A stretch of 64,000 bases of DNA from Deinococcales bacterium (GCA_031414595.1 JANNVX010000114.1:9497-73496); one strand, 5' to 3'. Positions 23,680-41,375 are shown, counted from the stretch's first letter. Numbers and translations: made by a program. Notes: generated by a model from the sequence alone, not told the origin.

Positions 23680-23777
23680 CTGCTTAAAAGTCGCTCGATT
23701 CAAAATAAGTTGATTAAGCCCTGGCTCGAAACTTCTCGAGCAGAAATAGATGCTTGGTATTAAAACAGGAGTGATTC

Positions 23778-24287
23778 ATGACAACATTTGCCCCAACCAT
23801 GCTTGCCACACCAACTGATTTAAGTGCAAAAGAAGTACAAATAATCAGTCAAAGCCTGAATGCCTTAATTGCCGATGCTTTGGCTTTATATATCAAAACC
23901 AAAAATTACCATTGGCATTTGTACGGTGCAAGTTTTAAGGAACTCCACGAACTTTTTGACACCCATGCCGAGCAACTTCTCGAGTCAGTAGACCCTCTTG
24001 CCGAACGGGTGCGTAAACTTGGTGCGACCACACTGCATTCAATTTCGCAAATTGCCAAGTTACAACAAATTAAAGACGACGAAGACGATTTGGTTAAACC
24101 ACTGGAAATGGTCAAGCGCTTACTGAGCGACAATCAATATATGGCACGTTGTCAACGCACTGCCATCAGTGTTTGCGAAGAAAACAACGATACCGTCAGC
24201 AGTGATATTTTACAAAGTTACCTCGACCAAACCGAACGTCGGGTTTGGTTTTTGTTTGAAATTGCCCAAGGCAAAGCCCATCAATAA
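23778..24287 (+). CDS. dps: Dps family ferritin-like DNA protection protein (copy 1)
   Basis: LYIKTKNYHWH..G..F.ELHELFD, D.LAERVR.LG, ERRVWFL. Confidence 0.92.
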   Translation: MTTFAPTMLATPTDLSAKEVQIISQSLNALIADALALYIKTKNYHWHLYGASFKELHELFDTHAEQLLESVDPLAERVRKLGATTLHSISQIAKLQQIKDDEDDLVKPLEMVKRLLSDNQYMARCQRTAISVCEENNDTVSSDILQSYLDQTERRVWFLFEIAQGKAHQ

Positions 24288-24409
24288 AAAATAAATTGGC
24301 GATTTGGAAAATAATCATGTGCGCGGGAGAAATCCGAACAATGATGAATCAGTTCTTGCCACTCGAGATGATGCCGTGCATCTCGGGTGAGACTTTTATC
24401 AGGAGCAAC

Positions 24410-25066
24410 ATGAAAACCGATCAGCAACTTCGAGAAGATATTATTGCCGAACTGGAATATGACCCAAGCATTGAGACCAAAAAAATCTCGGTGGCAACCT
24501 TGAATGGCATTGTTACTTTATCTGGCAGTGTGCCAAATTTTTATGAAAAATGGAGCATCGAACGAGCCGTAAAGCGAGTGGCTGGCGTGAGCGGGATTGC
24601 CGAGGAATTAACCGTTCAAACTTTTCCCAATACTGAACAAACAGATAGCGAAATTGCCCAAGCCGCTCGATTGGCAATCCAATGGAGTGTGGCTATTGCC
24701 GAAGAACAGATTCAAATTATGGTTGAACAAGGGATCATTACACTCGAGGGTGCAGTGGATTGGCAGTACCAAAAGCAAAATGTCTACGATGCGGTTATTC
24801 ATTTACGCGGGGTTCAAGGTATTCATAATCGGATAACCTTAAAACCATACCTGACAAGTACCGACGTGCGTGAAAAAATCGAAGCTGCCTTTAAGCGCAG
24901 TGCCAACTTTAACGCAAAACAAGTTCATGTAACCGTGGACAACGGCAATGTCACGCTCGAAGGCAACTTGCCCACATGGACTGAACGTGACACCGCTAGC
25001 CGAGTGGCTTGGAACGCGGCGGGGGTGATGACGGTCAACAATCAAATTATGGTGGGTGGCATCTAA
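24410..25066 (+). CDS. Triple BON-domain (OsmY-like) protein
   Basis: Three BON repeats (GIVTLSG, GIITLEG, GNVTLEG...AWNAAGV..VNN); RBS AGGAG before ATG 24410. Confidence 0.9.
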   Translation: MKTDQQLREDIIAELEYDPSIETKKISVATLNGIVTLSGSVPNFYEKWSIERAVKRVAGVSGIAEELTVQTFPNTEQTDSEIAQAARLAIQWSVAIAEEQIQIMVEQGIITLEGAVDWQYQKQNVYDAVIHLRGVQGIHNRITLKPYLTSTDVREKIEAAFKRSANFNAKQVHVTVDNGNVTLEGNLPTWTERDTASRVAWNAAGVMTVNNQIMVGGI

Positions 25067-25110
25067 GAATGCGTTCAAAAAATGCGGCTGGCAAACAAAG
25101 GACCAAAATC

Positions 25111-25437
25111 ATGAAAGAAATTATGCCAAGTAAAGCCTCGGATATGTCAGATCGGATTCATGCCAATATGTACATAGAAAGTTGTATCAAAACCGCCAAA
25201 ACATTTGTTGGAACGGTTGCAGGTATAAAAAACGATCTTTTTATTAAATTGCGTAAACGCGACACACCAGATGGTAAACGCCGTTTTATTCCACTCGAGT
25301 GGGTTCTGTCAGTCGAAGGGGATACGGTGCTGCTGAGTAAAAAAGCTGAAACCGTCAGGCGCAGATGGTTGACCAAAGCAGCCGTTAAAAAGCATCTGCA
25401 CAAAATACATAAATCCCAAAGTCAGTCAAAGCCTTAA
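25111..25437 (+). CDS. DUF2171-like protein
   Basis: VGTV...IKLRKRDTPDGKRRFIPLEWV.SVEGDTV.LSK; start uncertain. Confidence 0.65.
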   Translation: MKEIMPSKASDMSDRIHANMYIESCIKTAKTFVGTVAGIKNDLFIKLRKRDTPDGKRRFIPLEWVLSVEGDTVLLSKKAETVRRRWLTKAAVKKHLHKIHKSQSQSKP

Positions 25438-25465
25438 AAAATCCGCCATCCAAAAAGGAGGAAAC

Positions 25466-25690
25466 ATGTACGACATCCCTAACCATCTCAGCGATGATTT
25501 ACCAACTTTAAGTCCGTTGGTCAGTTTAAGCCCCGAAGTCTTTCTCAAGAGCCAGCCAATGCTGCTTTATGCCGATATTCTCGAGCAACCAGACCACTTA
25601 CTGATTCGCATAAACGTACCAGGTGCAAGACCAGGGAACATTATTGTCACCTTGGAGAACAATGTTTTATCGGTAGCAGCCAAACTCGAG
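25466..25690 (+). pseudogene. 3'-truncated Hsp20/alpha-crystallin gene
   Basis: Paralogous to 38564..39046 up to ...NNVLSVAAKLE; homology stops at CTCGAG 25685-25690 and the ORF then reads antisense into the USP fragment. Confidence 0.8.
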
Positions 25691-25885
25691 CCACGGCTGG
25701 AGAATCTGTTGCGCTTCGTTTTTATTTGTTTCTTCAGGAATTATCAGAAAACGACCATGTTGCACATTGGTTAGAATCACAGTTGCTTCGAGTTGATGTG
25801 CCAGCAAAAAACCCGATTCGATGGCTTTATTTACGGCGGTTTGTTCATTGTGGGCAACGGGTATAAGAATTCGTTTGATGGTCAT
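25685..25885 (-). pseudogene. 3'-truncated universal stress protein gene
   Basis: MTIKRILIPV...AHQLEATVIL..V...EAQQILQPWLE with RBS AAGGAG; USP similarity ends at the same CTCGAG. Confidence 0.75.
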
Positions 25886-25911
25886 GATTCACGCTCCTTT
25901 TGTTAAAAGCT

Positions 25912-25943
25912 ACGTTAGAACCAGTGCATTACGGCGATATTAC
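25912..25943 (-). promoter_or_regulatory. SARP-type operator site 1
   Basis: GTAATAT-cgcc-GTAATGC-N8-TAACGT, upstream of the truncated USP. Confidence 0.65.
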
Positions 25944-26800
25944 TGCCAGCGCTCGAGAACCTGATTATGTTGACCCACACAAGCTCCATCGCTCGAGAAT
26001 GGACAATTGGCTGTAACTTGCACTGGTTGACGATTACAGATTTTCTCCCCGTTTTTGATCCGCTCAGCAAGCACTAAAGTTTCTGGCATTGGTGAATCCT
26101 CGAGTTCTGCGCGTAAAAAATGAATGAACCGACGGTAATGTTCGATGGCAGCGTACTTATCTTCCACCACTGATAGACAAGTCATCAGTTTTTGATGGTA
26201 GTTCTCGCCAATATACGGGTCTATTCGTAACGCCCTGACTAAAGCACCAACTGCACCTGCACACGCTCCTGTTCCGCAATGCAGCAAAGAAATCTCGAGA
26301 TTAGCTCGGACATATACACCGCGCAGTTCTTCGCGTAATTCATTTGCCCAAGCTACTGTCATACTGGGTAAGAAATCTCCTTTGTACAAACCAATAACAT
26401 TCTGAAAAGCCCTGAGTTTTAATTCTTCAGTTGCGGCATGATGGGCTGATTCAAGGGTTCTATACATCTGGTTTAAGTCGGTGGATGCCAGCACATAGGC
26501 ATTTAAGCGGTAACGATTGTGCTGCTCGAGTAACACATCGTTATTTTCGAGTGCCTGACGAATACGGTGTACCGTGACCCGAAACCGATTATTGCTTTCT
26601 TTAGTCGGTTCGGTTTGCCAGAGTTGCTCAAAAATTTCTTCTTTTTGCTTACCTTCAGGGTGGGCAAGTAAATAAAAAAAGAGTTCCTCGGCAGTTTTAC
26701 TCTTAAATTGAGCCTCTGCTCCATTCACCAGCACTTGATGCGTGCCTAGCGTTCTAATCTCGAGACTGATAAAGACCTCCAAGTGTAACCGAGCTTTCAA
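25940..26800 (-). CDS. SARP/AfsR-like transcriptional regulator (wHTH + BTAD) with Cys-rich C-terminus, paralog 1
   Basis: EIRTLG..QV, ELFFYLLAHP, EQLW, FRVTVHRIRQAL (wHTH); LYKGDFL, WANELRE, ALRIDPY.E..HQKLM, E..DSP.PET (BTAD). Start uncertain: GGAGG sits 5 nt before ATC 26770. Confidence 0.85.
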   Translation of the reverse strand: MKARLHLEVFISLEIRTLGTHQVLVNGAEAQFKSKTAEELFFYLLAHPEGKQKEEIFEQLWQTEPTKESNNRFRVTVHRIRQALENNDVLLEQHNRYRLNAYVLASTDLNQMYRTLESAHHAATEELKLRAFQNVIGLYKGDFLPSMTVAWANELREELRGVYVRANLEISLLHCGTGACAGAVGALVRALRIDPYIGENYHQKLMTCLSVVEDKYAAIEHYRRFIHFLRAELEDSPMPETLVLAERIKNGEKICNRQPVQVTANCPFSSDGACVGQHNQVLERWQ

Positions 26801-26835
26801 AGTGACCTAAACACAGCCTACAGCTTTGTAGACAG

Positions 26836-26867
26836 ATTATCCTAATTATTAATTACCAAAGCATTAC
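26836..26867 (-). promoter_or_regulatory. SARP-type operator site 2 (upstream of BTAD regulator 1)
   Basis: GTAATGC-tttg-GTAATTA-N8-GATAAT. Confidence 0.65.
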
Positions 26868-26896
26868 CAGTCTGTGAATCACGAATTAGTTAGGCT

Positions 26897-26928
26897 GTAA
26901 CGCTATGGTAATGCCAACCTTGCAGACT
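26897..26928 (+). promoter_or_regulatory. SARP-type operator site 3
   Basis: GTAACGC-tatg-GTAATGC-N8-CAGACT, then RBS AAGGAGG and USP ATG 26947. Confidence 0.7.
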
Positions 26929-26946
26929 CTTTCAAGGAGGCATTCC

Positions 26947-27375
26947 ATGTTTCAACATATCCTCGTTCCAATAGACTCGAGCCAATCCAGCAAAGCCGCC
27001 GCACAACTCGCTGCACGGTTGGCTCGAGCATGGGGAAGTCAGGTTACTTTTGTGCATATTTACGAAGGTGACGCGACCCAAGAAGCTCGGGCTTTACTCG
27101 AGGGTTTTATACAATACACCCGTCTTGTCCCACACCTGATTCTCGAGCCGATGCAGCATAACTTATCAGAAACACTGGTTGGACTTGCCACTCGAGAAGC
27201 CACCGAACTAATCCTGATTGGTGTTCATGCCTATGCCAGACTCGAGCAAGAAGTGCTGGATGGGGTGGCAGGAAGCATTTCGGAACAAGCCAAAATACCC
27301 GTCTTAATCGTGCCAATAGAAAGTAAAAAAGTTGGGTTTGAAGCGCGTTGGGCAAGTGCGGTAATGCAGCCGTAA
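26947..27375 (+). CDS. Universal stress protein (single domain)
   Basis: MFQHILVPIDSS..S..A, LILIGVH, PVLIVP. Confidence 0.85.
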   Translation: MFQHILVPIDSSQSSKAAAQLAARLARAWGSQVTFVHIYEGDATQEARALLEGFIQYTRLVPHLILEPMQHNLSETLVGLATREATELILIGVHAYARLEQEVLDGVAGSISEQAKIPVLIVPIESKKVGFEARWASAVMQP

Positions 27376-27392
27376 TGCCAGTACCGCAAACT
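27361..27392 (+). promoter_or_regulatory. SARP-type operator site 4 (upstream of the sORF-USP-nrfHA-pyk run)
   Basis: Perfect GTAATGC-agcc-GTAATGC-N8-CAAACT. Confidence 0.75.
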
Positions 27393-27412
27393 ATTCTCGA
27401 GTGAGGTGAACC

Positions 27413-27586
27413 ATGCGAACCATTCCAGTAATCGGTAGTTTAACCCTATTTCTAGCCAGTTTATTTGTTGCCATAAATTTACAAAAACCATTGGCAGGAC
27501 TGATTATTTTAATTGTTAGCTTGCTGACTTTGTGGCTCGAAGTTAGCCACCGAGATTCACAAGAAGGAGAACATCATGTTCGCTAA
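27413..27586 (+). CDS. Small two-helix membrane protein, 57 aa
   Basis: Below ORF-track cutoff; RBS GAGGTG; MRTIPVIGSLTLFLASLFVAINLQKPLAGLIILIVSLLTLWLEVSHRDSQEGEHHVR; overlaps the next start. Confidence 0.6.
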   Translation: MRTIPVIGSLTLFLASLFVAINLQKPLAGLIILIVSLLTLWLEVSHRDSQEGEHHVR

Positions 27587-28526
27587 AGTCTGCATTCCTG
27601 TTACCAACGAATCCCTGTCCATTCATGCGGCTCGAGCCGCGCTGGATTTTGCCCATAAACTCAAGGCTACAGCTGTGTTTGTATCGGTCTTTACAATGCC
27701 GATTATTTACCGCTCTCAGACCGAAGAAGAAGTTCGGCTTGAATTACAAAAAAATACTGAAGCCTTTCTCGAGACTTGGATAGAATTTGCCGAGCATCGC
27801 CAAGTTCCAGTCAGTACAATCGCCATTGAAGCTCGAGCCTCGGGAATCGCCCAAACCATTGCCGAAATTGCTCTTGAGGAACACTGCGATTTAATCGCTA
27901 TGGGAACACACGCCTACGAAGGGATGAACCGACTTTTGCTTGGTAGTATCGCCGAAGCTGTGACACGTTATTCGCACTTACCAGTGATGCTATTCCATAT
28001 CGGTCTTGTACCAACCGCCAAACCATTTGATTGCAACCGAATTCTGGTGGCTGTGGATGGTAGTCAAGCTACAGCCGAAGCACTTGATATTACCAGAGCT
28101 TTGGCTAAACAATTGCCTGCCAGTGTTGAAATCTTGCACGTAGTACCTGACGTTCCACCGACTTACGATACCATCATGCCAATGATTGATTACTCAAACC
28201 TAGCTACTGATTACTTAAACGAAGGTAAGCATATTTTGTACAACGCTGAAGCTAAACTAACCGACATTAGCAACAAGGAATTGGTTCTCGAGCCAGCCGG
28301 TGGTCGGCGAATTGCCACTGTGATTCTCGAGATTGCTAAAAATCATCACGCTGATTTGATTGTGCTGGGAACACACGGGTACGGTGGTTTAGACCGAATT
28401 TTACTCGGCAGCGTGGCGCAAGCCGTGGCGCACCATGCTCATGTGCCTGTGCTGCTGACTCGAGCAGCACAGCGCGAAGATGTGGCTGCCTCTGCTGCTA
28501 CTGCCCTCCCAAGTTTAGCTGTTTAA
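27576..28526 (+). CDS. Tandem-domain universal stress protein
   Basis: Two USP domains (DLIAMGTH...LLGSIAE; RILVAVDGS...DLIVLGTHG...LGSVAQ). Confidence 0.92.
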   Translation: MFAKVCIPVTNESLSIHAARAALDFAHKLKATAVFVSVFTMPIIYRSQTEEEVRLELQKNTEAFLETWIEFAEHRQVPVSTIAIEARASGIAQTIAEIALEEHCDLIAMGTHAYEGMNRLLLGSIAEAVTRYSHLPVMLFHIGLVPTAKPFDCNRILVAVDGSQATAEALDITRALAKQLPASVEILHVVPDVPPTYDTIMPMIDYSNLATDYLNEGKHILYNAEAKLTDISNKELVLEPAGGRRIATVILEIAKNHHADLIVLGTHGYGGLDRILLGSVAQAVAHHAHVPVLLTRAAQREDVAASAATALPSLAV

Positions 28527-28563
28527 GAATTTGTGACCTCGAGTTCCGTAAGGGGAGCAACCA

Positions 28564-29052
28564 ATGAAACTGACTTTTACTGCAATTCTTGCTTGGCTAT
28601 CGGGCAGTGGTTTCTTGGTAGCACTGGCGGCTGGTTTTGGTATTCTAGGCGGGGCTAGTGGATATACTGCTTATTATGCAGGTGCAACCAGTTACTTGTC
28701 GAGCGACCCGAAAGCCTGTGTCAATTGTCATATCATGCGCGAAGTCTACGATTCATGGGCAAAAGCACCGCATCATAACGTGGCGGTTTGTACCGATTGT
28801 CATTTACCCCATGATTTTATTGGCAAATGGCTTGCCAAAGCCGAAAATGGCTGGAATCACTCAAAGGCATTTACCTTACAAAATTTCCATGAACCAATCC
28901 GAATTAACAAAAAGAACCTAGAAATTCTCGAGCATAACTGCAAATCTTGTCATGCCGACACAGTGCATCAAATGGTATCCGAAGTCAAACAAGACAACAG
29001 CTTAGGTTGCTTGCATTGTCATGCTGATGTTGGGCATGGACCACAACGATAA
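28564..29052 (+). CDS. nrfH: Cytochrome c nitrite reductase small (tetraheme, membrane-anchored) subunit
   Basis: N-terminal TM; CVNCHIM, CTDCH, CKSCH, CLHCH; adjacent to nrfA. Confidence 0.93.
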   Translation: MKLTFTAILAWLSGSGFLVALAAGFGILGGASGYTAYYAGATSYLSSDPKACVNCHIMREVYDSWAKAPHHNVAVCTDCHLPHDFIGKWLAKAENGWNHSKAFTLQNFHEPIRINKKNLEILEHNCKSCHADTVHQMVSEVKQDNSLGCLHCHADVGHGPQR

Positions 29053-29061
29053 GGAGCAAAA

Positions 29062-30468
29062 ATGGCAAAGATTCGAGGTCCGGTACTGACTGCCAGTGTG
29101 TTCTTAGCTGGCGCACTTGTGACTGTTGGCGTATTAGCACTGTACACCAATATCGTGCAGCGCAAAGCTGAGGAAAAACAACACGTTTTCCAAGTTGTGG
29201 AAATTACTGAAGACACCATAGACCCTGCCGAATGGGGCAAGAATTACCCCAAGCAATATGATAGTTACAAACGCACTGTGGATACCGAACGCACCCGTTA
29301 TGGTGGTTCGGAAAACTTTCAAAAACTTGATTCCGACCCGTTCCTACGCACCATCTTTGCAGGTTACGCCTTTGGCATAGATTTCAGGGAAGAACGCGGT
29401 CATGCCTTTATGCTCGACGACCAACGCGAAACCAAACGAGTCACCGAACGCAAACAACCCGGCGCGTGCCTAAATTGCCATGCCAGTGTACTGACCGCCT
29501 TTCGGGAAACTGGTGTCAAAGCAGGAGTACCAAACGACGAAGACCACCGTTGGGAAGCCGTAGCCAAAGGCTTTACATTGGTCAATAAACTCACGTACTC
29601 GGCTGCTACAGCCCTTGTGACCCACCCTGTTTCATGTGTGGACTGCCATAACCCAACCGACATGGCTGTGCGTGTGACCCGACCAGCCTTTATGAATGGA
29701 ATCCAAGCTCTTGCCAAATCAAACGACCCACTGCCTAATTTCCCCAGCATCGAACGCTGGCGCAAAACCAATCAAGCCGTGCCGTATGACCCAAACAAAG
29801 AAGCCTCACGCCAAGAACTGCGAAGCATGGTCTGCACCCAATGCCATGTCGAGTATTACATCACCAAAGAAGACAAACAACTGACCTTCCCGTGGCAGAA
29901 CGGACTTAAGCTCGAGCAAATCGAAAAGTATTACGACGATGTGGGTTGGAAAGACTGGGAACACAAAATTTCTAAAGCCCCAGTGTTAAAAGCCCAACAC
30001 CCAGAAATGGAACTCTGGTCACAAGGCATTCATGCTCGAAGCGGCGTAGCCTGCGCCGACTGCCATATGCCCTATCAGCGCCAAGGCGCAATTAAAGTCT
30101 CGAGCCACCATGTTCGTAGTCCGATGTTAAACGTGGCACAAGCCTGCCAGACTTGCCACCGGTACGACGAAACAGAAATCAAAGCTCGAGTCGAAGTTAT
30201 TCAAGACCGCACTCAGAAATTATTGACCCAATCAGAATCGGCAGTTGTGGACTTGATCAATGCCATTGCAACCGCCATGAAAGCCAAAAAAACCGACTCA
30301 CAACTTAAAACTGCCCGCGATTTCCAACGCAAAGCCCAATTCCGAGCCGATTTTATCAATGCCGAGAACAGCATGGGATTCCATGCACCCCAAGAAGCTG
30401 CACGCTTACTAGCCGAGAGTATTAATTTTGCGCGGCTTGGACAACTCGAGGTTGCAAAACTAAAGTAA
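29062..30468 (+). CDS. nrfA: Ammonia-forming pentaheme cytochrome c nitrite reductase, CxxCH heme-1 variant
   Basis: RGH, CLNCH, CVDCH, CTQCHVEYY, KAQHPE, CADCHMPY, CQTCH, AENSMGFHAP. Confidence 0.93.
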   Translation: MAKIRGPVLTASVFLAGALVTVGVLALYTNIVQRKAEEKQHVFQVVEITEDTIDPAEWGKNYPKQYDSYKRTVDTERTRYGGSENFQKLDSDPFLRTIFAGYAFGIDFREERGHAFMLDDQRETKRVTERKQPGACLNCHASVLTAFRETGVKAGVPNDEDHRWEAVAKGFTLVNKLTYSAATALVTHPVSCVDCHNPTDMAVRVTRPAFMNGIQALAKSNDPLPNFPSIERWRKTNQAVPYDPNKEASRQELRSMVCTQCHVEYYITKEDKQLTFPWQNGLKLEQIEKYYDDVGWKDWEHKISKAPVLKAQHPEMELWSQGIHARSGVACADCHMPYQRQGAIKVSSHHVRSPMLNVAQACQTCHRYDETEIKARVEVIQDRTQKLLTQSESAVVDLINAIATAMKAKKTDSQLKTARDFQRKAQFRADFINAENSMGFHAPQEAARLLAESINFARLGQLEVAKLK

Positions 30469-30480
30469 GGATTTGAATTT

Positions 30481-32335
30481 ATGAAAACTAAGTCGCTCGA
30501 GCCACCGCTTAAAAAAATGATTGCCCAAGTCCTTAACCTACGCAACCAAGCTATTGCCCTCGAGCAAACGTACCACGTTGAACTTAAAAAAATTCGCCCC
30601 CCATATTTGCAAAGCGCTCGAAATTTAATTCATTACTTGGCGGTGCGCCAACAAGACATTCGTGAGATACAACTTGAGTTGCAACGCCTTGGTCTGAGTT
30701 CGCTTGGGCGCATGGAAGCCAATGTTTTAGCAACGCTCAATGCCGTGTTGTTCGCTTTGCAACGCATGGCTGGCTCGAGCGAACAGCTTGAGGTAACGCT
30801 TGACCCACAGCTTGAGGTAACGCTTGACCCACAGCTTGGGCGCTTACTTCGTAATCACACCACCCGAATTCTTGGTAAAAGTCCACGACATCGGGCAGTG
30901 AGAATCATGGTCACAATGCCCGAACAAGCTGCCACCGATGCTGGTTTAATTGCCAAATTTCTCGAGTGTGGTATGGATATTATGCGAATAAACTGCGCTC
31001 ATGACGATGCCATAACTTGGGCAAAGATGCTCGAAAATCAGCGCCAAGCAACCATTCAACTTGGACGCAGTTGTCGTGTTGTCTTTGATTTGGCTGGACC
31101 AAAACTTCGCACTGGATTATTTGAAGCGAGCGCAGAAGTCCTCAAAATAAAACCAGCGCGATCAATTTGGACGAGTGGTGACCAAAGCTCGAGTCTTTTT
31201 TACAACCACAAAGTTAAGTGCGCCAACCCAAACAGTCTGTATTCCAGTAACCGAGTTACAATTGCAAAGCTGCCAACTAGGTGATCAATTTTTGTTGACC
31301 GATGCTCGAGGTCGCTCGAGAATTTTTGAGATTATTGAGCTTTTAGCCACTGGTTGTATTTGCCAAATCGAACGAACTGCCTACTTGACTTCGGGAATGC
31401 CAATTTGTGTTTACCACAATAAAAAACAATTGCTTGAGGGTCGAATTGGCAAGTTGCCCTCAAAACCACAAGCCCTCGAGTTGCGAGTTGGAGATACGTT
31501 AATCGTGACCCACGATAGTATTCTTGGCAATCAAGCCCGAATTGAGAACGGGATGCCAATACCAGTCCAGATTGGTTGTACTTTGCCACAAGTCTTTGGT
31601 GATGTCAAACCAAACGAGCGAATTCTATTTGACGACGGCATCATCGCTGGCATCATCAAAAAAGTCAGTCCAGAACAACTCGAGGTAGAAATCACCAATG
31701 TGGCTGGAGGTCTAGCAAAACTTCGTTCCGAAAAAGGCATTAACTTACCTGATACCGATTTTTCGATAGCTGCTTTGACTGAAAAAGACCTCGAAGACCT
31801 CAAGTTTATTGTTAAAAACAGCGATATGGTTTCGTTATCCTTTGTCCGAAACCGAAAAGACATCGAAATGTTGATTGCTCAACTCGAGCAATTAGGCGGG
31901 AAGCACCTTGGCATTGTCTTAAAGATTGAGAATCGTCTTGCTTTTGAGAATTTACCCGATTTACTACTGACAGCCTTGTCTCACCCACCGGTTGCAATCA
32001 TGATTGCTCGAGGCGACTTAGCTGTGGAAATAGGGTTTGAGCGCCTTGCTGAAGTCCAAGAAGAAATTCTTTGGCTCTGCGAAGCGGCGCATATTCCCGT
32101 GATTTGGGCAACCCAAGTGCTGGATTCGTTAGCAAAAAATGGTTCACCAACTCGAGCCGAAGTGACCGACGCTGCCATGTCAGGACGCGCTGAATGCGTC
32201 ATGCTTAACAAAGGCTCATACATTCCCGAAGCCTTGTTGTTTCTTGATAATGTTCTGCGACGCATGAAGCAACATCAGAACAAAAAAACTTCGATGCTCA
32301 GACGCTTAAAAGTAACAACGCCAAAGCTCGAGTAG
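30481..32335 (+). pseudogene. pyk: Long-type pyruvate kinase, split by a frameshift near 31156-31160
   Basis: ORF1: GLSSLGR.E, RIMVTMP, RINCAHD, DLAGPKLRTG. ORF2: FDDG, KGINLP, KIE, ARGDL.VE, WATQVL, TRAEVTDA, CVMLNKG. The frames join as KIKPA(R)DQFGRVV if 2 nt are restored in GCGCG. Confidence 0.85.
30784..30838 (+). repeat. In-frame 24-bp tandem duplication inside pyk (QLEVTLDP x2)
   Basis: CAGCTTGAGGTAACGCTTGACCCA repeated exactly twice, plus a partial third copy. Confidence 0.9.
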
Positions 32336-32366
32336 CTGATGTACCTCTAAAACAAATACCAAATAA

Positions 32367-33215
32367 CTAAGCCAGACCAACGTAAGCACCATCTCTCGAG
32401 AAACAGCAATTGGTTGTAAATGACATCGGTTCGCGGTTACAAATTTTCTCACCGTTTTTGATTCGTTCAGCCAGAGCAACCGTTTCGGGCATTGGTGAAT
32501 CCTCAAGTTCTACTTGTAAAAAATGAATAAAGCGTCGGTAATGCTCTATTGCAATGTATTTATCTTCGACCACGGATAAACAGGTCATTAGTTTTTGATG
32601 ATGATTCTCTCCCATATACGGGTCTATCCGCAGGGCTGCATCTAAGGTACTGACTGCTTTGGCACACGTACCAGTTCCACAATAAAGCAGCGAAATCTCG
32701 AGGTTAGCACGAACAAAAACCCCGCGCAGTTGTTCACGCAGTTCATTTGCCCAAGTTGTGGTTATGCTCGGTAAAAAGTCGCCTTGATAGAGTGCGATAA
32801 CACGCTTAAAGGCTTGCAATCGCAGTTCTTTGTTTGGGGCATGGCGGGCTTCTTCTAGGGTCTGATAAATTTGGTTTAAGTCGGTAGCCGCCAGCACAGC
32901 CGCGTTTAAGCGGTAACGATTATCTTGCTCGAGCAGTGCCTGATTATGCCCGAGTGCCTGACGAATACGGTGTACGGTGACTCTAAAACGATTATTGCTT
33001 TGGTTGGTTGGTTCGGTTTGCCAGAGTTGCTCGAGAATTTCTTCTTTTTGCTTACCGTTTGGATGAGCCAGTAAGTAAAAAAAGAGTTCTTCGGCGGTTT
33101 TACTCTTAAATTGGGCGGCTTGGTTATTGACCAAAACATGGTGTCTGCCAAGGGTCGCAATCTCAAGAATCGGGCAAACCTCAAGAAGTTCTTGCCCAAT
33201 CCGACCTTGCTCCAT
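32367..33215 (-). CDS. SARP/AfsR-like regulator (wHTH + BTAD) with Cys-rich C-terminus, paralog 2
   Basis: Closely similar to 25940..26800 (AQFKSKTAEELFFYLLAHP, NNRFRVTVHRIRQAL, ANLEISLL.CGTG.C, KLMTCLSVVEDKY, AERIKNGEKICNR); RBS AAGGAG before ATG 33215. Confidence 0.88.
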   Translation of the reverse strand: MEQGRIGQELLEVCPILEIATLGRHHVLVNNQAAQFKSKTAEELFFYLLAHPNGKQKEEILEQLWQTEPTNQSNNRFRVTVHRIRQALGHNQALLEQDNRYRLNAAVLAATDLNQIYQTLEEARHAPNKELRLQAFKRVIALYQGDFLPSITTTWANELREQLRGVFVRANLEISLLYCGTGTCAKAVSTLDAALRIDPYMGENHHQKLMTCLSVVEDKYIAIEHYRRFIHFLQVELEDSPMPETVALAERIKNGEKICNREPMSFTTNCCFSRDGAYVGLA

Positions 33216-33299
33216 TTTTTTCTCCTTGACACTGCGTAAAAAACCCAAATTCTGGAGTATTGCAACTCGAGCGAATTTGGGTTTTGCAGGAGTAAAATC

Positions 33300-33342
33300 A
33301 GAGTAAGGCGCAGAACTGAAGTCTGGCTGAAGAGTAACTGAA
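33300..33342 (-). promoter_or_regulatory. Perfect triple TTCAG array upstream of BTAD paralog 2
   Basis: TTCAG-N6-TTCAG-N6-TTCAG-N10-TACTCT. Confidence 0.75.
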
Positions 33343-33371
33343 CATAAACTACCTTGGCTCGAGCCTTAGGT

Positions 33372-33893
33372 TTAACTTTGTGCTACGGCTCTTAGAATAT
33401 CGCTGGTGGTCACAATACCTTTAAGTTCATCGCCGTACAGCACCACTAAACACGAAATGTTCTCCTCGAGCATGACTCTGGCTGCATATGCCACTGGCGC
33501 GTCTTGGAGGATTGTAATCACTGGGTTGTGCATCAGTTCTTTAGCCGTGGTTTTCTCGAGCAGCAGAGGGATTTCCCATTGGGCGAGGCTAGTTGCATCC
33601 GACGGTAAGGCACGGCGAATGTCTCGGTCAGTAATAATACCAACGATTCGGTCATGATTTTTAACCAATAAATGCCGAAAACCATGTTCTTGTAAAATCC
33701 GTCGAATCTCGGGCAGGGTGGTGCTGACTTCGACGCTGATAACCTTGGCAGTCATGATTTCATGGACGCACCAATAACCGCTTTCACGGGCAAGCAATGG
33801 GGTTTGACTACTGATGTGGTCTTGATGCCCGAAACGCAATATAAATTCATCTTTGGTTTGCTCGAGCTTGGTGATACCTGTGGTTGTGGTCAT
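33372..33893 (-). CDS. CBS-domain pair protein
   Basis: EIMT..VISV, FRHLLV, VGIITDRDI, LM..PVITI, KGIVTTSDIL. Confidence 0.9.
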   Translation of the reverse strand: MTTTTGITKLEQTKDEFILRFGHQDHISSQTPLLARESGYWCVHEIMTAKVISVEVSTTLPEIRRILQEHGFRHLLVKNHDRIVGIITDRDIRRALPSDATSLAQWEIPLLLEKTTAKELMHNPVITILQDAPVAYAARVMLEENISCLVVLYGDELKGIVTTSDILRAVAQS

Positions 33894-33909
33894 ATATTTT
33901 CTCCTTTTG

Positions 33910-35511
33910 TTACAGCGTTAGCAGAATTTGCGCCAGCAGTATCTTGGCAATCATTGCCATTGGATAAACAGTCGCGTAACCTTGATTGGGTAGGTCGTTG
34001 CCGCTTCGTTCGGTGGCAAAGGCAAGCACGGCTGGTTGGGTTTGCAAGCCTGCCAGCATTCCAATCGCAATCGGGAACGGGACGCGCAGGATTTTATGGG
34101 CAATAAATAACAAAGTAATGGCTACAAAACAAGTCAGGAACGTACCCAGTAAAAATAAGGTGATTCCGAGGCTCGAGAAGACTGTTTGACCAAAAGCAAA
34201 ACCCGAACGTGTGCCGACCCCCGCTAAAAACAGCACAATCCCAATTTGGCGTAAGGTCAGGTTAGCACTGTACGGAATCTGCCATAAGACCCCTAAAAAA
34301 CGTTCTCCCCAACCGAGCAACAAACCAACAATCAGTGTGCCACCCGCAATACCAAGTTCAAAATGACCACCGTTTGGCAATGGGATTTTTAGACTACCGA
34401 GCAGCAAGCCAAGGGCGATTCCTAAGCCAAACGACAGCACATCAATTTCAGAAAGATGCTGGTACGAATCGCCTAGAAAACTCGAAATCGCTTTCATTTC
34501 TTGGGGCGCACAAACCACCCGCACTCGGTCGCCTAACTCAAGAACGGTGTCTTTATTGGGTAAAAATTCTATATCTCCGCGCCGAACTCGAGTTATCAAT
34601 GCCCCAAAACGCTGTGGCAATTGCAACTCTAGTAGGCTTCGCCCAGCCACAGCTTGGCTAGAAACAAAAACCCGACGGTAATCAAAATGACTGCGGTCTA
34701 GTTCGAGTGCGGCTGGAATAACCTCACCAAGCCGATTGATACTTTTTTGAACAGCTTCTTCTGTACCAATCAGGGTAATAATATCACCAAGCTCAAAAGT
34801 TGTTTTTGGCGAGACCAGACTTTGAATTTGACCACGCTGATGTCGCGCAAACAGCACATTCCAGCCCTCTGACTGTGCCACCACGGTTAAACCAATTAAA
34901 TCTGGGTTGGTCAGGCGTACCGAGGCACTTTTTAAGCCGTTGGCTGTAAACCCAGCCACTCGAGCCGACTCGAGTTTCATATCTACCCGCCAGAATCGCT
35001 CGAGTAAGCCAATACAAAGCAGCATCGCAATCACACCCATTGGGTACGCCACGCTGTAACCAAGCACCGGTAAGGATTCGGCACTCGTACCCTTGATCGC
35101 CTCGAGTACCCCTGCTAAGGCGGGCGTATTGGTGAAAGCACCAGCAAAGACCCCAGCCACTAAACTCGGCTCGAGATTGAGAATGCGGCGCAGCAAACTC
35201 GAGACCAGCACGGCTAGTATTAACGCCCCCAGCACCAGGGCATTATCGCGCAGACCACGCTTGCCTAGACTGCGAAAAAAACCTGTGCCACTGGATAAAC
35301 CAATCGTATAGACAAATAACACCAAGCCAAGGCGCTGAATAATCTCGGGCAGTTTAAGTTCGGCATCCAAACTACCAAACGCTAGCCCTACAAATAAAAC
35401 GGCGGCAATACCCAAGGAAAAACCCGCAATTTTGACCCGCCCGAGCAGAAAGCCTAAGCTCGAGACCAGAAAAAGCAGCAGCAGTGGGTTTTCTTTGAGT
35501 AAGGTCAGCAT
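33910..35511 (-). CDS. AspT/YidE/YbjL family transporter with TrkA-C domains
   Basis: LGIAAVLFVGL, GLVLFVYTIGL, GAFTNTPALA, YSVAYP.G, RVRRGD, GMLAG.QTQPAVLAFA. Confidence 0.9.
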   Translation of the reverse strand: MLTLLKENPLLLLFLVSSLGFLLGRVKIAGFSLGIAAVLFVGLAFGSLDAELKLPEIIQRLGLVLFVYTIGLSSGTGFFRSLGKRGLRDNALVLGALILAVLVSSLLRRILNLEPSLVAGVFAGAFTNTPALAGVLEAIKGTSAESLPVLGYSVAYPMGVIAMLLCIGLLERFWRVDMKLESARVAGFTANGLKSASVRLTNPDLIGLTVVAQSEGWNVLFARHQRGQIQSLVSPKTTFELGDIITLIGTEEAVQKSINRLGEVIPAALELDRSHFDYRRVFVSSQAVAGRSLLELQLPQRFGALITRVRRGDIEFLPNKDTVLELGDRVRVVCAPQEMKAISSFLGDSYQHLSEIDVLSFGLGIALGLLLGSLKIPLPNGGHFELGIAGGTLIVGLLLGWGERFLGVLWQIPYSANLTLRQIGIVLFLAGVGTRSGFAFGQTVFSSLGITLFLLGTFLTCFVAITLLFIAHKILRVPFPIAIGMLAGLQTQPAVLAFATERSGNDLPNQGYATVYPMAMIAKILLAQILLTL

Positions 35512-35526
35512 AAATACCTCGAGATT

Positions 35527-37356
35527 TTATTCGTGGGCGAGTTCCCCAAGTTCTGGTGAACGCCATAGCGCACTGAGCATTAACTCGCGGATAAAAATAA
35601 ATTCTTTGGGCAATCTATCGTAGAGTTTGATAAATAATTCGTCGTGCGAGGCAATTTCTTGTTGCCATAATTCGCGGTCAATACTGATTAACTGCTCGAA
35701 TTGGGTTTTGGTCATGTCCAGACCGCGCCAATCCATGTCCTCATAGCGGGGAACCCAACCAAGGACACTTTCGACGCTAGTGGCATGACCTCTGGCACGT
35801 TCGACAATCCATTTGAGGACGCGCATATTTTCGCTAAAACCATGCCATAAGTAGTTGCCGGCTGCGTCTTTGCGAAACCAATTGACATTAAAAATTCTTG
35901 GTGGGTTGGGTAATTCCCTGCCAAGTTGCACCCAATGATTAAAGTAATCACCCATGTGATAACCACAAAAAGGTAGCATCGCAAATGGATCGCGGCGGAC
36001 TGCCCCTGTTGCACCAACTGCCGCCGCCGTAGTTTCGCTACCCATTGTAGCAGCCGCATAAACACCATAAGTCCAATTAAAACTCTGGTAAACCAGTGGT
36101 ACAACCTTCGAGCGTCTGCCACCAAAGATAAAGGCAGAAATTGGTACGCCATCTGGGTCGTTATAAGCTGGGTCAATGACTGGGCATTGGGCTATCGGCG
36201 CGGTAAATCTCGAGTTAGGATGGGCGGCTTTGCGTCCACAATCAGGGGTCCAGTCTTGTCCTGTCCAGTCTATTAAATGCGCGGGTGGTGTGGCGCTCAT
36301 ACCTTCCCACCAAACATCGAGGTCGTCGGTCAGGGCAACATTGGTAAAAATCGTATTCTCGAGAATGCTGTTCATGGCGTTGGGATTAGATTCAAAATTT
36401 GTGCCTGGAGCAACCCCAAAAAAACCTGCTTCTGGGTTGATGGCTCGGAGTTGCCCGTGGCTGTCTGCTTTTATCCAAGCAATGTCATCTCCAACTGTAC
36501 TGATTTCCCAACCATCATCGGTAAAAGGTTTTGGTGGTATCAGCATCGCAAAATTGGTTTTACCACAAGCACTTGGAAAGGCTGCCGCCACATAGGTTTT
36601 TTCGCCGTTCGGGTCTTTAACACCAAGAATCAGCATATGTTCGGCTAACCAATTTTGTTCTTTTGCCAGCACACTAGCGATTCTTAGGGCAAAACACTTT
36701 TTACCAAGCAAGGCGTTGCCACCGTAACCAGAACCATAACTCCAGATACTGCGTTCCTCGGGGAAATGAACGATGTACTTGTCAAAGTTACATGCCCAGC
36801 TACTGTCTTTTTGTCCAAACTCGAGCGGTGCGCCAAGGCTGTGTAAGCAATGCACAAAATCGTTGTTCCCCAATGCTTCGAGTACCGCTTGTCCCATGCG
36901 CGTCATAATTCGCATATTGACCGCCACATATGGCGAATCGGATAATTCTACGCCAATGTGCGAAATTGAACTGCCAATCGGACCCATGCTGAACGGAATC
37001 ACATACATCACCCGTCCGCGCATTGAACCCGCAAATAAGCCTTGCAACTTGGTTTTCATGGCTTTGGGTTCAAACCAATTGTTCATCGGACCCGCGTCGG
37101 ATTTACTTCTCGAGCAAATATAAGTGCGGTCTTCGACCCGTGCCACATCGGTCACTGCGGAACGTGCCAAAAAACTATTCAGGCGCTTATCGGGGTTAAG
37201 CCGTATAAACGTACCACTTTGCACCATTTGTTCACAGAGCTTGTCGTATTCTTCTTGTGAGCCATCGCACCAATGAATGCTGTCTGGCTGGCATAATGCC
37301 GCGACTTCTGCGACCCAACGTTGTAACTCGAGGTTGCTTGTGAATTCTTTTGTCAT
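35527..37356 (-). CDS. pckG: Phosphoenolpyruvate carboxykinase (GTP)
   Basis: [69 protein letters not shown]; start at ATG 37356 after AGGAGG. Confidence 0.96.
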
Positions 37357-37374
37357 ATAAATCCTCCTGTTTGA

Positions 37375-37406
37375 AGTTTGCAACTCGAGAATTACCAGTG
37401 CATTAC
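37375..37406 (-). promoter_or_regulatory. SARP-type operator site 5 (pckG operon)
   Basis: GTAATGC-actg-GTAATTC-N8-CAAACT. Confidence 0.72.
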
Positions 37407-37427
37407 CACACGGGTGGGAACACAACC

Positions 37428-37459
37428 GTAATGCCTTGGTAATGCCAGCCTTCGAGACT
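37428..37459 (+). promoter_or_regulatory. SARP-type operator site 6 (ldh-like gene)
   Basis: Perfect GTAATGC-cttg-GTAATGC-N8-GAGACT, then RBS GGAGG. Confidence 0.75.
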
Positions 37460-37476
37460 CTTGTTCGGAGGTACTT

Positions 37477-38382
37477 ATGAAAATCAGTATTATTGGAGCA
37501 GGAATGGTTGGTGGCGCAATTGCCAATGCTTTAGCCCAAAAGAACTTGGCTTTAGAAGTCGTTTTAATAGATAAAGAACACAGTCTTGCCGATGCACAAG
37601 CCCTTGACATCAATAGTGGATTCATGGGACAAACCATTATTCGCGCAGGTGAACTCAGTGATGTTCATGATTCAAAAATCATTATTCTCGCCGCAGGTCA
37701 ACGCACCACCTTTAATTACAGCAGTAAGCAATTACTCGAAGTCAACACCACCATCTTACAAACCACCCTCAGCACCATCCGAGCCATAGAGTTACAATCA
37801 GACGTGATCATCATCAATGCGATTCAACCAATTGACATGATGACCAATCACATTGCCAAATTATTTGGCGAAAAATATACAAATCGAATTATTGGCACAG
37901 GCACAATCCTCGAGACCAACTTATTCCGACAAGCCATCGCTAAACAAGTTGGTGTTCATTTAAGTCAAGTTCATGGGTATGTACTTGGACAACAAGGCGG
38001 CAGTGCTTTAATGGCATGGAGTACGGTTCGCGTAGCTGGCATTCCGTTTGAAACCTACCTCGAGCAGCACGGACAGCACCTGACCAATCAAACCAAGAAT
38101 AAAATCGCAGAAGCCGTACAGTACGCGGTCAATAAAGCCTTGCAGCAAAAAGGATCGTTTTTGTTTGGCTTAGGTCATGCCATTACCCATTTAATCAATG
38201 CAATTATCGAAGACCGTCATGAAATCATGACCGTCAGTGCATGGGATGAAGCTCAGGGCGTTGCGATTGCCTTACCACGAATTATCGGTAATAGTGGTGT
38301 TCTCGAGACGGTCGAACCGATGTTATCGCCCGATGAAGCTGCAAAACTCGAAGTGATTATCGGCTATTTTCGCAACGTTTAG
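37477..38382 (+). CDS. L-lactate/malate dehydrogenase-fold protein with substituted catalytic residues
   Basis: [11 protein letters not shown]ossmann motif intact, but NPVD->QPID, GTxLDxxR->[12 protein letters not shown]->GQQG. Confidence 0.8.
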
Positions 38383-38411
38383 TTGTGTATTTAGGATAGA
38401 AATCTATTGTT

Positions 38412-38449
38412 TTCAGCAAGTCTTCAGCTAAATAACCTTACGCATTCAG
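38412..38449 (+). promoter_or_regulatory. TTCAG array upstream of the hsp20-dps-BON run
   Basis: TTCAG at 38412, 38423 and 38445 (11-bp grid); -10 not clearly placed. Confidence 0.6.
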
Positions 38450-38563
38450 GTGATGATGCTTACTTATGGAGAGTCAAATTTTCCACTGGCAGATTGTGGC
38501 ATAGGTCGTGGTTTAAGTAAATTATTTTACTTGAAGAAGATGGGTTAGTTAAGGAGAAAAACA

Positions 38564-39046
38564 ATGGTTCATTATGATATTCCCAAGCAGCTTCTTCCTG
38601 AAAAACAACTTACCCATGAAATTTGTCCACCCCAAAAGCTAGGCATCAGTCCAGAGGTGATTCTCAACGGCTTACCGAGGTTGTTACATACCGATGTTCT
38701 CGAGCAGCCAGACCATTTGTTAATCCGTATGAACTTGCCAGGTGTAAAACCAGAAAATGTGGCGGTCACACTAATGAACAATGTCTTATCGGTAGTGGCG
38801 CGGCTCGAGACTGAATCGCTAGAAGCACAGTATTTGTGGCGTGAACGCCCAAGTGGTGAAGTTTTTCGTTCGATTGCTTTAATTGGCGACCTCGAGATGT
38901 GTGGTGGTCGGGCTTTTCTCGAGCATGGCGTGTTGACTGTGCGGGTTAATAAAGTCAATAGCCATGTGCTTGCAGTACAACTTGGGGCGCTCGAGCATGA
39001 TTACTTAGAGCTTGTGCAAACAGACTTTTGTCAAGCTTGGTACTGA
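38564..39046 (+). CDS. Hsp20/alpha-crystallin family small heat shock protein
   Basis: DVLE..D.LLIR..LPGVKPE...V.L..NVL.V, RERP.G.V.RSI.L, A.LEHGVLTV. Confidence 0.85.
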   Translation: MVHYDIPKQLLPEKQLTHEICPPQKLGISPEVILNGLPRLLHTDVLEQPDHLLIRMNLPGVKPENVAVTLMNNVLSVVARLETESLEAQYLWRERPSGEVFRSIALIGDLEMCGGRAFLEHGVLTVRVNKVNSHVLAVQLGALEHDYLELVQTDFCQAWY

Positions 39047-39058
39047 ACAAGGAGTTTT

Positions 39059-39568
39059 ATGACGATTCCAGCCACAAAAATGTTGGCGACTCCAACAGAC
39101 CTAAGCCCAGACCAAGTGACAGCCATTAGCCAAACCATTAATATTTTAATTGCTGATACTTTGGCGCTCTATATTAAAACCAAGAATTTTCATTGGCATT
39201 TGTATGGCGCAGACTTCAAGGAACTGCACGAGCTTTTTGACTCGCACGCCGACCAATTACTGGCTTATGTAGATGTGCTTGCCGAGCGTGTCCGCAAACT
39301 TGGTGAACCAACCCTACATTCAATTTCGCAAATTGCCAAGTTACAACAAATTAAAGATGACAATGAACCCTCGGTCAAGCCACTTGAGATGGTTAAGCGG
39401 TTATTGAGCGATAACCAACAGATGGTTCGTCAGCAACGAACAGCCATTGCACTTTGCGAAGCCAACCACGATTCGCCTACCAGCAATGTTTTACAAACGT
39501 TCCTTGATGAAACCGAGCGTCGTGTTTGGTTTTTATTTGAGATTACCCAAGGAGAAAAATCCAAATAG
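39059..39568 (+). CDS. dps: Dps family protein (copy 2)
   Basis: Same motifs as 23778..24287, with long identical stretches (LHSISQIAKLQQIKDD). Confidence 0.92.
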   Translation: MTIPATKMLATPTDLSPDQVTAISQTINILIADTLALYIKTKNFHWHLYGADFKELHELFDSHADQLLAYVDVLAERVRKLGEPTLHSISQIAKLQQIKDDNEPSVKPLEMVKRLLSDNQQMVRQQRTAIALCEANHDSPTSNVLQTFLDETERRVWFLFEITQGEKSK

Positions 39569-39776
39569 TTTTTTCTAGGTCAAAAGGAGTATTTATGGAC
39601 AGCACTAAAAAAAACTTGAGGCGGCAACTCGAGCCGCTTGGAATACCCAGGGTGTGACTTCGGTCAGAAACGACATTTTGATTGCTTGAAACTCGGAAGT
39701 GAAAACTGAACCAGTCGTTTCTCGCCACTCGAGATGATGCCGTGCATATTAAGTGAGACGCTAAACAGGAGTAATC

Positions 39777-41370: not shown

Positions 41371-41375
41371 CAATC

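Follow-up and report, generated by a model that had tools for sequence, protein, structure and literature searches.

Paired GTAATGC boxes around two small SARP-like regulators in a Deinococcales genome: candidate operators of a regulon with low-oxygen-type gene content

Introduction

SARPs are the textbook activators of antibiotic pathways. Here, we describe six direct-repeat boxes and the genes of two small SARP-like regulators, from here on referred to as BTAD-1 and BTAD-2, in a 64,000-nucleotide stretch of DNA (the window; positions 9497-73496 of contig C114) from a Deinococcales metagenome-assembled genome (G000; 4.49 Mb, 120 contigs, 47% G+C). The boxes adjoin genes of respiration, fermentation and stress metabolism and are predicted to be operators of the two regulators encoded among them.

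Among the closest described systems is the SARP domain of AfsR from Streptomyces coelicolor with the afs box of the afsS promoter (PDB IDs: 8k60, 8hvr, 8jke). In the available excerpts of the AfsR study, SARP targets are described as direct repeats 11 or 22 bp apart whose 3' repeat lies 8 bp from the -10 element; the afs box itself is 22 bp long with its centre at -29.5, where it overlaps a -35 element of poor quality, and two SARP protomers bind side by side and provide an alternative docking point for region 4 of the sigma factor (PMC10936776). The window regulators share the winged helix and BTAD fold of AfsR, and their boxes likewise comprise 22 bp in two 11-bp direct repeats, 8 bp from the -10 hexamer, with the centre near -30 where a -35 element would otherwise lie. 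They differ from AfsR in their low sequence identity (about 20%), the absence of NOD and TPR domains, the Deinococcota host, the GTAATGC core of the box and the four conserved cysteines and Cys-bearing tail, which AfsR lacks; their predicted targets are respiration, fermentation and stress genes and not an antibiotic regulator.

The small SARPs of actinomycetes (ActII-ORF4, RedD and DnrI), compared here by description, are alike in size (about 280-300 aa), domain order, the heptameric direct repeats over the -35 region and their action as self-contained activators, as far as the excerpted text of a 2024 review allows (PMC10972967). In the same excerpts, SARPs are stated to be "exclusively found in actinobacteria" and are placed in biosynthetic gene clusters (PMC10972967). 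(The "SARP" of PMC1274311 is an unrelated eukaryotic domain.) The proteins described here depart from this usual description, both in their host, a Deinococcales genome with orthologues in 61 of 81 sampled Deinococcaceae genomes, and in their predicted targets, which belong to primary metabolism, namely respiration and fermentation, and to stress responses.

Two further comparisons concern function. The DosR regulon comprises many universal stress proteins (USPs) and a CBS protein, together with fermentative enzymes and genes for nitrate/nitrite handling, and both DosR and FNR belong to protein families unrelated to SARPs and recognize palindromic operators. DosR (DevR) of mycobacteria and FNR of enterobacteria are thus analogues in function alone, sharing the flavour of the regulon (USPs, CBS proteins, nitrate/nitrite and fermentation genes). 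DnrS of Thermus thermophilus, compared by description, comes from the same phylum and is likewise a BTAD-containing activator tied to anaerobic respiration: the excerpts available describe a GAF and BTAD protein, proposed to sense oxygen, that activates anaerobic respiration genes and its own operon in a lineage without FNR, and report no operator for it (PMC5748679, PMC6282519). Unlike DnrS, the window proteins have no GAF domain. The literature on this small SARP regulon in Deinococcaceae, on Deinococcus oxygen limitation, USPs and transcriptomes, and on SARPs outside actinobacteria or in primary metabolism was covered incompletely; within that coverage, no paper on the regulon and nothing relevant to the other subjects was found.

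Six boxes share one geometry

The boxes are located at 25943-25912 (-, box 1), 26867-26836 (-, box 2), 26897-26928 (+, box 3), 27361-27392 (+, box 4), 37406-37375 (-, box 5) and 37428-37459 (+, box 6), and a window search combined with direct reading of the sequence recovered all six sites named in a preliminary description of this DNA. Each contains two GTAATGC-like heptamers 11 bp apart, followed exactly 8 bp on by an xAxxxT hexamer (A at position 2, T at position 6), and each faces its adjoining gene, so that the geometry and orientation first reported hold without exception. The excerpts of PMC10936776 give the same spacing for SARP promoters, 11 bp between repeats and 8 bp from the 3' repeat to the -10 element, a correspondence that had also been pointed out. 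Boxes 2 and 3 form a divergent back-to-back pair 29 bp apart, and boxes 5 and 6 a second one 21 bp apart.

Searching the window for GTAATGC-N4-GTAATGC with up to 3 mismatches returned 13 matches, compared with 6.0 ± 2.4 in shuffled sequence. Boxes 4 and 6 match perfectly, boxes 3 and 5 carry one mismatch and boxes 1 and 2 carry two. A single additional window match with 2 mismatches or fewer (32527-32544, +) lies within the coding sequence of BTAD-2 and lacks the hexamer T; the earlier statement that the paired motif is absent elsewhere in the window is therefore true in substance. Across all of G000, 42 matches with up to 2 mismatches were found, and the window holds both perfect ones and two of the six with one mismatch.

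A weight matrix was trained on 49 sites, all from genomes other than G000, and run over the whole of G000 and three shuffled genomes. Boxes 6, 5, 4, 3 and 2 are the five top matches in the genome, scoring 42.5 (box 6, hexamer GAGACT), 37.4 (box 5, CAAACT), 36.0 (box 4, CAAACT), 34.7 (box 3, CAGACT) and 25.4 bits (box 2, GATAAT). Box 1 (hexamer TAACGT) is the weakest site at below 12 bits. The shuffled genomes contain no match of at least 20 bits, and G000 contains two outside the window (C21:6015 and C1:26180). The former was considered as a further regulon member and rejected, as it lies antisense within a 345-aa open reading frame (ORF); the latter is described below together with a second class of boxes.

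The geometry was further analysed in 66 distinct sites with up to 2 mismatches from the window and 46 loci of relatives, the loci having been picked via the regulator orthologue or the heptamers, with the hexamer playing no part in the choice. At a spacer of 8 bp, a hexamer with A2 and T6 is present in 55 of 66 sites, compared with 1-12 at the other spacers from 2 to 15. The spacer columns between heptamer and hexamer are unconserved and carry no information. Two bases preceding each heptamer are weakly conserved, and the box is thus best described as two 11-bp direct repeats; no third repeat is found upstream in this set.

The distance from hexamer to start codon is 17-26 nt, except for BTAD-1, where the start, itself uncertain, is about 36-66 nt away. 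Four boxed genes have a Shine-Dalgarno sequence and an ATG within 17-20 nt of the hexamer. Generic scans of positions 23500-41500 yielded no more than shuffled sequence: a sigma-70 promoter scan gave 26 calls versus 24.7 in shuffles, none of them at the six boxes, and a terminator scan gave 22 versus 22.1.

The regulators are small SARPs

BTAD-1 (25940..26800, -, 286 aa from a TTG) and BTAD-2 (32367..33215, -, 282 aa from an ATG) are 78% identical. The BTAD domain (PF03704) is recognized in both at 48.4 and 53.9 bits, respectively, well above the cut-off of 22.1, and both match positions 67-275 of the NCBIfam AfsR model (E 6e-8 and 1e-10). An AlphaFold model based on 35 orthologues (pLDDT 89.4, pTM 0.82; helices spanning residues 108-249) was compared with the PDB using Foldseek. 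Its best matches were 8k60_J, the AfsR SARP domain in a transcription initiation complex, with E 1.5e-10 over 245 columns and a TM-score of 0.77 on the target, as well as 8hvr_I (AfsR) and EmbR (2ff4 and 2fez), and the alignments, 245-252 columns in length, include the winged helix. A profile of the 35 orthologues aligns with AfsR residues 25-267 (E 3.6e-7). Such a profile was needed to reach AfsR, as single-sequence searches of the PDB returned only winged helices of SaeR. Model, Foldseek matches and profile all place an OmpR-type winged helix before the BTAD domain, the domain order of SARPs. Based on these matches to AfsR and EmbR, BTAD-1 and BTAD-2 are small SARPs by fold and domain order, and the regulators had been correctly called SARP-like at the outset.

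Winged helix and BTAD domain fill the 282-286 residues, and Pfam searches detected neither a GAF nor a receiver domain in either protein. No GAF-BTAD form occurs among 54 longer relatives that were found; the longer relatives include SARP-NOD/TPR proteins of about 1000 aa, mostly labelled Chloroflexota and 24-34% identical.

Four cysteines are nearly invariant in the 35-sequence alignment: C175 (33/35), C180 (35/35), C208 (35/35) and C255 (34/35), contained in the motifs HC-x4-C, LMxCL and GExxC. AfsR has other residues at the positions aligned with them in the profile alignment. A C-terminal tail motif adds C266 and C274 in 31 of 35 orthologues, and two Deinococcus orthologues without the long tail keep the first four cysteines. 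Judging from the order of the helices in the model, the four cysteines should sit at the same end of the helical bundle.

Boxes and regulator orthologues occur together

The closest relatives are Deinococcales metagenome-assembled genomes, with more distant orthologues in named Deinococcus species. A protein search identified further orthologues in D. cellulosilyticus, D. roseus, D. irradiatisoli, D. sonorensis, D. aquaedulcis, D. arcticus, D. hopiensis and Calidithermus chliarophilus, where the annotation goes no further than "AfsR/SARP family" or "BTAD" regulator. The boxes beside orthologues extend across an uncultured Deinococcales family and into Deinococcus. Boxes built in this way adjoin the orthologue in sixteen loci (L002-L014, L017-L019), and none were found beside distant BTAD paralogues in nine others (L020, L022-L029).

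Individual boxes of the window are conserved as well. A box orthologous to box 1 precedes a 325-aa tandem USP in locus L030, boxes precede orthologous regulator genes in five loci (L031, L037-L040), and box 4 is conserved in L031 and L004 ahead of the same small ORF. Divergent promoter pairs for phosphoenolpyruvate carboxykinase (PEPCK) and Ldh, or for PEPCK and a CBS protein, occur in nine loci (L033, L035, L036, L050, L051, L060, L078, L083, L084).

The preliminary description had named lack of co-occurrence with orthologues as grounds for abandoning the proposal. In two genome sets, boxes and orthologues were found to occur together. The first comprises 41 relatives, 18 of which have an orthologue at E 1e-50 or better. 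In these 41 genomes, 28 perfect boxes are distributed over 13 genomes, 12 of which encode an orthologue, the remaining one (G011) having a partial match. The other 22 orthologue-free genomes contain no perfect box; a few matches with one mismatch occur in them, of a kind that also recurs as non-promoter matches in G000.

The second set is an even sample of 81 Deinococcaceae genomes, divided at E 1e-40 or better into 61 with and 20 without an orthologue, and searched for GTAAY-N6-GTAAY-N11-A-N3-T with zero mismatches. Where the orthologue is present, 269 matches were found and 60 of 61 genomes have at least one; where it is absent, there are 10 matches and 6 of 20 genomes have at least one. The reversed pattern, used as a control, matches 5 times over all 81 genomes. 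Related genomes are non-independent samples, and counts are therefore given here instead of a P value.

Predicted regulon content

First genes were assigned by Pfam and NCBIfam profile searches for 42 of 53 box references; the omitted ones are the six window genes, which were scanned separately, and five near-duplicates from three loci (L036, L038, L051). USPs are the commonest first genes (15), followed by CBS proteins (7), PEPCK (4), the regulator itself (4), Ldh/Mdh-type dehydrogenases (2), multicopper oxidases with a cupredoxin tail (2), a major facilitator superfamily transporter (1) and a DoxX protein (1), and 6 have no Pfam family. The best NCBIfam match of the transporter is the NarK family. 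For the two multicopper oxidases, both from Deinococcus, it is copper nitrite reductase, far below the cut-off.

A second set covers 83 of 106 ORFs, leaving aside 23 alternative starts, very short ORFs and repeats of genes already covered. Genes were chained into operons heuristically, which makes the distal members less certain. The set contains pyruvate:ferredoxin oxidoreductase (TIGR02176, 1730 bits) together with NifS/NifU-type genes. It also includes flavodoxin, DsbA with VKOR, multihaem cytochromes, DOMON and EB_dh proteins, a CoA-disulfide-reductase-like flavoprotein, DsrE and TusA, P-type ATPases and an 867-aa U32 protein whose UbiU/TrhP-like matches are below the cut-offs.

The preliminary description had proposed a DosR/FNR-like role for the regulators and a new role for the SARP family. 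The first proposal is drawn from gene content, which is conserved across genera and fits. The second is less new than stated, since DnrS had already been proposed as an oxygen sensor for nitrate respiration (PMC5748679, excerpt). New elements are the stand-alone subfamily of small SARPs and its defined operator (core GTAATGC), the conserved regulon of low-oxygen type, the broad occurrence among Deinococcaceae and the candidate cysteine sensor. Whether the regulon is a low-oxygen, energy-limitation programme is an evenly balanced question as far as the signal is concerned. In the window, PEPCK, an Ldh/Mdh-type dehydrogenase and an exporter-type transporter of the AspT family would fit a branch of C4-acid fermentation, presuming, as we do, that a succinate exporter belongs to the same transporter family.

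Proposed mechanism

The boxes are probably the operators of the small SARPs, as judged from sequence and model comparisons. In the proposed mechanism, each 22-bp box would serve as one operator, its two 11-bp direct repeats (core GTAATGC) ending 8 bp short of a weak hexamer at -10 (xAxxxT, in many cases CARACT). As in the case of AfsR, two protomers would bind next to each other on the same DNA face and, with the box centre near -30, stand in for the missing -35 element. Bound in this way, the activators would recruit RNA polymerase and switch on promoters that are otherwise too weak. BTAD-1 would also activate its own gene through box 2. The predicted outputs are nitrite ammonification (NrfHA), a fermentation branch leading from phosphoenolpyruvate to C4 acids or lactate with an exporter-type transporter, and many USP and CBS proteins, extended in relatives by pyruvate:ferredoxin oxidoreductase, a NarK-like transporter, Fe-S assembly genes and relatives of U32 oxygen-independent hydroxylases.

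We hypothesize that the activator itself is a redox or metal-cluster sensor, acting through C175, C180, C208 and C255. In its furthest form, the proposal is that these would be the first SARPs to sense oxygen or redox state directly: the cysteines would bind an Fe-S cluster, or form a redox-active metal or thiol site, at one end of the BTAD bundle, the regulator would be an FNR/DosR-equivalent master switch across Deinococcales and much of Deinococcus, and the "sigma adaptation" of SARPs would be an old, cross-phylum mechanism. Taken as a whole, this extended version is tentative and on balance doubtful. Deinococcus species are usually treated as strict aerobes. If the extended version is true, these supposed strict aerobes would possess an equivalent of FNR and DosR for switching low-oxygen metabolism, and sigma adaptation would be old and cross-phylum and not an actinobacterial speciality.

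SARP promoter architecture, including the 8-bp distance, here organizes a conserved set of respiration, fermentation and stress genes in another phylum, which argues that conserved contacts with RNA polymerase dictate this geometry. For low-oxygen physiology in Deinococcota, a phylum described as lacking FNR in the excerpted Thermus literature (PMC6282519), these proteins are candidate master regulators whose operator is defined. Cultured carriers of the orthologue, among them Deinococcus pimensis, D. cellulosilyticus, D. roseus and D. hopiensis, allow testing, and the conserved cysteines offer a concrete hypothesis for signal sensing.

Alternative explanations

Several observations weigh against this interpretation. 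On the protein side, the winged helix is weakly matched by Pfam Trans_reg_C (E 2e-4 and 4e-4; 21.6 bits versus a threshold of 26.2), the two C-terminal cysteines are absent in some orthologues and the C-terminal tail is modelled at low confidence. On the DNA side, box 1 is weak and precedes a gene remnant, and the hexamers are poor -10 elements that, at four genes, leave just 17-20 nt to the start codon, so that leaders would be very short. The co-occurrence counts come from related, hence non-independent, genomes, and they include exceptions. One Deinococcus genome, G092, assembled as a single contig of 3.0 Mb and rated 98% complete, lacks any orthologue better than E 2e-24 and yet contains three boxes, among them a divergent USP-DoxX/four-CBS pair and one upstream of cytochrome oxidase genes; the assembly may lack a replicon, the gene may have been lost recently, or another protein may read these boxes. 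Five other orthologue-free genomes have one or two pattern matches. Finally, USP and CBS proteins and the Hsp20-type and ferritin-type neighbours of the island would also fit a general stress or dormancy role.

This last point leads to the strongest alternative, in which the regulator-operator pair is the same and the signal is not low oxygen or nitrite; the response would be one to general stress, starvation or dormancy, as in stationary phase or desiccation. USPs and CBS proteins lead 15 and 7 of the 42 first-gene assignments, respectively, and genes for Hsp20, ferritin-like and BON-domain proteins flank the island. However, these flanking genes have no box, and the boxed genes include enzymes and transporters specific to anaerobic metabolism (NrfHA, the NarK-like transporter, pyruvate:ferredoxin oxidoreductase, Ldh and the UbiU/TrhP-like U32 protein). 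A general stress signal is accordingly regarded as rather unlikely, though it deserves serious consideration.

A less probable alternative accepts the boxes as operators and assigns them to another winged-helix regulator, either an OmpR/PhoB-type response regulator or a paralogue in which a receiver domain precedes the SARP part (REC-SARP), the small SARP genes being mere members of the regulon. PhoB sites share the design of direct repeats with an 11-bp period next to the -10 element. G092, with its boxes, lacks a small SARP and its best match (E 2e-24) is of the REC-SARP type. Furthermore, a near-identical box, GTAACGC-N4-GTGACGC-N8-TACACT, precedes genes for Liv-type ABC transporters even in genomes free of small SARPs, so another protein there must read near-identical boxes. 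On the other hand, REC-SARP-type matches are present in nearly all genomes searched, box-free ones included, and REC-SARP therefore cannot explain the distribution of the boxes; at individual sites it may nevertheless act. The conserved neighbourhood (23.7-41 kb) encodes no other DNA-binding protein, the small SARP gene is itself boxed across genera, and the recognition-helix motif differs between small SARPs (NRFR) and REC-SARP (SVFH). Control by another winged-helix regulator is consequently considered improbable, and the small SARPs remain the favoured readers of the boxes.

The REC-SARP paralogue of G000 is a separate gene of 349 aa on contig C18, about 30% identical to the small SARP and of the Deide_19260 type (COG3947), a response regulator described in PMC3564903, the only relevant paper on SARPs in Deinococcus among those found. 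It differs from the window proteins, which have no N-terminal CheY-like receiver domain. The second class of boxes, GTAACGC-N4-GTGACGC-N8-TACACT or -TAGACT with the same geometry, was found in eight loci (L098-L104, L108) from seven Deinococcus genomes (G040, G070, G105, G036, G112, G097 and G078), about 10 nt before the ATG of the Liv-type ABC transporter (Peripla_BP_6, permeases and ATPases). A further winged-helix or SARP-type paralogue probably uses it as an operator on promoters that are nearly leaderless. The match at C1:26180 in G000 (20.2 bits; positions 2001-2032 of locus L076) belongs to this class and lies between genes for a TPR protein of at least 651 aa and a lipoprotein-like protein, with a D12 adenine methyltransferase and a MutH-like nuclease coming after.

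That the SARP-like proteins are repressors blocking the -35 region is very improbable. The box does occupy the -35 position, and the excerpted review table lists a few SARPs as repressors (PMC10972967). However, the promoters lack any -35-like hexamer that could be blocked and have weak -10 hexamers, features that indicate activator dependence, and AfsR-polymerase contacts require just this fixed spacing of 8 bp to the -10 element in the excerpts of PMC10936776. Lastly, the repeats might be the promoter of an alternative sigma factor, for which upstream and -10-like conservation would in principle be suited, or an RNA element in the leaders. This can be set aside as extremely improbable, as identical heptamers one helical turn apart argue for a dimer and not a sigma factor, and the 21 and 29 bp between boxes 5/6 and 2/3, back to back, leave no room for upstream promoters transcribing the boxes.

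Genes of the island

The gene labels of the preliminary description are borne out by Pfam and NCBIfam searches, with two qualifications: the usp' gene is a remnant, and the pyruvate kinase gene is split by a frameshift. Operons in the window were delimited by intergenic gaps of 37 nt or less.

The usp' remnant (25667..25885, -, 72 aa) lies downstream of box 1. It has no Pfam match, and tblastn aligns it, at 45% identity, with just residues 1-68 of the tandem USP (325 aa) encoded in L030. Box 2 lies upstream of BTAD-1, whose true start is uncertain: the orthologue in L031 starts with GGAGG-N4-ATG, BTAD-1 has ATC at this point (26768-26800), and gene callers take a TTG ten codons upstream. Divergent from it, box 3 precedes a usp gene (26947..27375, +, 142 aa; Pfam Usp E 1.3e-16), with an AAGGAGG before the start codon, which is located 18 nt past the hexamer.

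Box 4 overlaps the 3' end of this usp gene and precedes a putative operator-controlled operon (27413..32335, +). Its first gene is a small ORF encoding a membrane-like protein of 57 aa, followed by a tandem USP (27576-28526; Pfam), nrfH (28564-29052; TIGR03153, 157.7 bits, above cut-off) and nrfA (29062-30468), the latter encoding an NrfA-like cytochrome c552 below the equivalog cut-off. The pyruvate kinase gene, identified by Pfam, completes the operon in two overlapping frames (30481-31284 and 31175-32335). The halves share one frame in L039, and the split in the window reflects a frameshift or an assembly error; about 137 N-terminal residues lie outside the pyruvate kinase domain.

The putative operon after box 5 (33372..37356, -) comprises GTP-dependent PEPCK (35527-37356; NF003253, 975 bits, above cut-off), an AspT/YidE-family transporter (33910-35511; assigned by Pfam, the AspT-family NCBIfam matches being below cut-offs) and a CBS-pair protein (33372-33893; Pfam). 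BTAD-2 follows. Neither reading of the sequence nor the matrix scan revealed a box upstream of BTAD-2. Between the CBS gene and BTAD-2, directly before the ribosome-binding site of the latter, a 13-bp stem with a loop of about 20 nt is followed by a run of T (33243-33290, -). This stem-loop, which was not called by the terminator scan, may be a leaky terminator that sets the level of BTAD-2. Box 6 precedes an Ldh/Mdh-family dehydrogenase (37477..38382, +; Pfam Ldh_1_N and Ldh_1_C) whose top NCBIfam match is L-LDH, below cut-off.

Similar sets of stress genes flank the island on both sides (23778-25437 and 38564-41166). One consists of genes for a ferritin-like protein, a three-BON protein and a DUF2171 protein; the other of genes for Hsp20, a ferritin-like protein and two three-BON proteins, beyond which a P-type ATPase and a LiaF-like protein are encoded. 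The matrix scan detected no box upstream of the flanking Hsp20, ferritin-like and BON genes, and for Hsp20 and ferritin-like genes the upstream regions were also read.

Elsewhere in the window, a 2820-aa ORF (10401-18863, -) and a 428-aa protein with a release-factor-like baeRF_family10 domain (47339-48625, +) are encoded. The hexamer CTCGAG occurs 23,235 times in the 4.49 Mb of G000 (5.2 per kb), 300 of these copies lying in the window, and other 6-bp palindromes are nearly absent from the genome (GAGCTC 6, GGATCC 24, GTCGAC 26 and CTGCAG 51 copies). Within long window ORFs, 129 of 228 copies are in phase 0, where they encode Leu-Glu. Loci of the same uncultured family contain 4.7-7.2 copies per kb at any G+C content (47-65%) and Deinococcus loci 0-0.43 per kb. 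CTCGAG thus looks like a lineage-wide, highly iterated palindrome, accompanied by what appears to be strong restriction-site avoidance.

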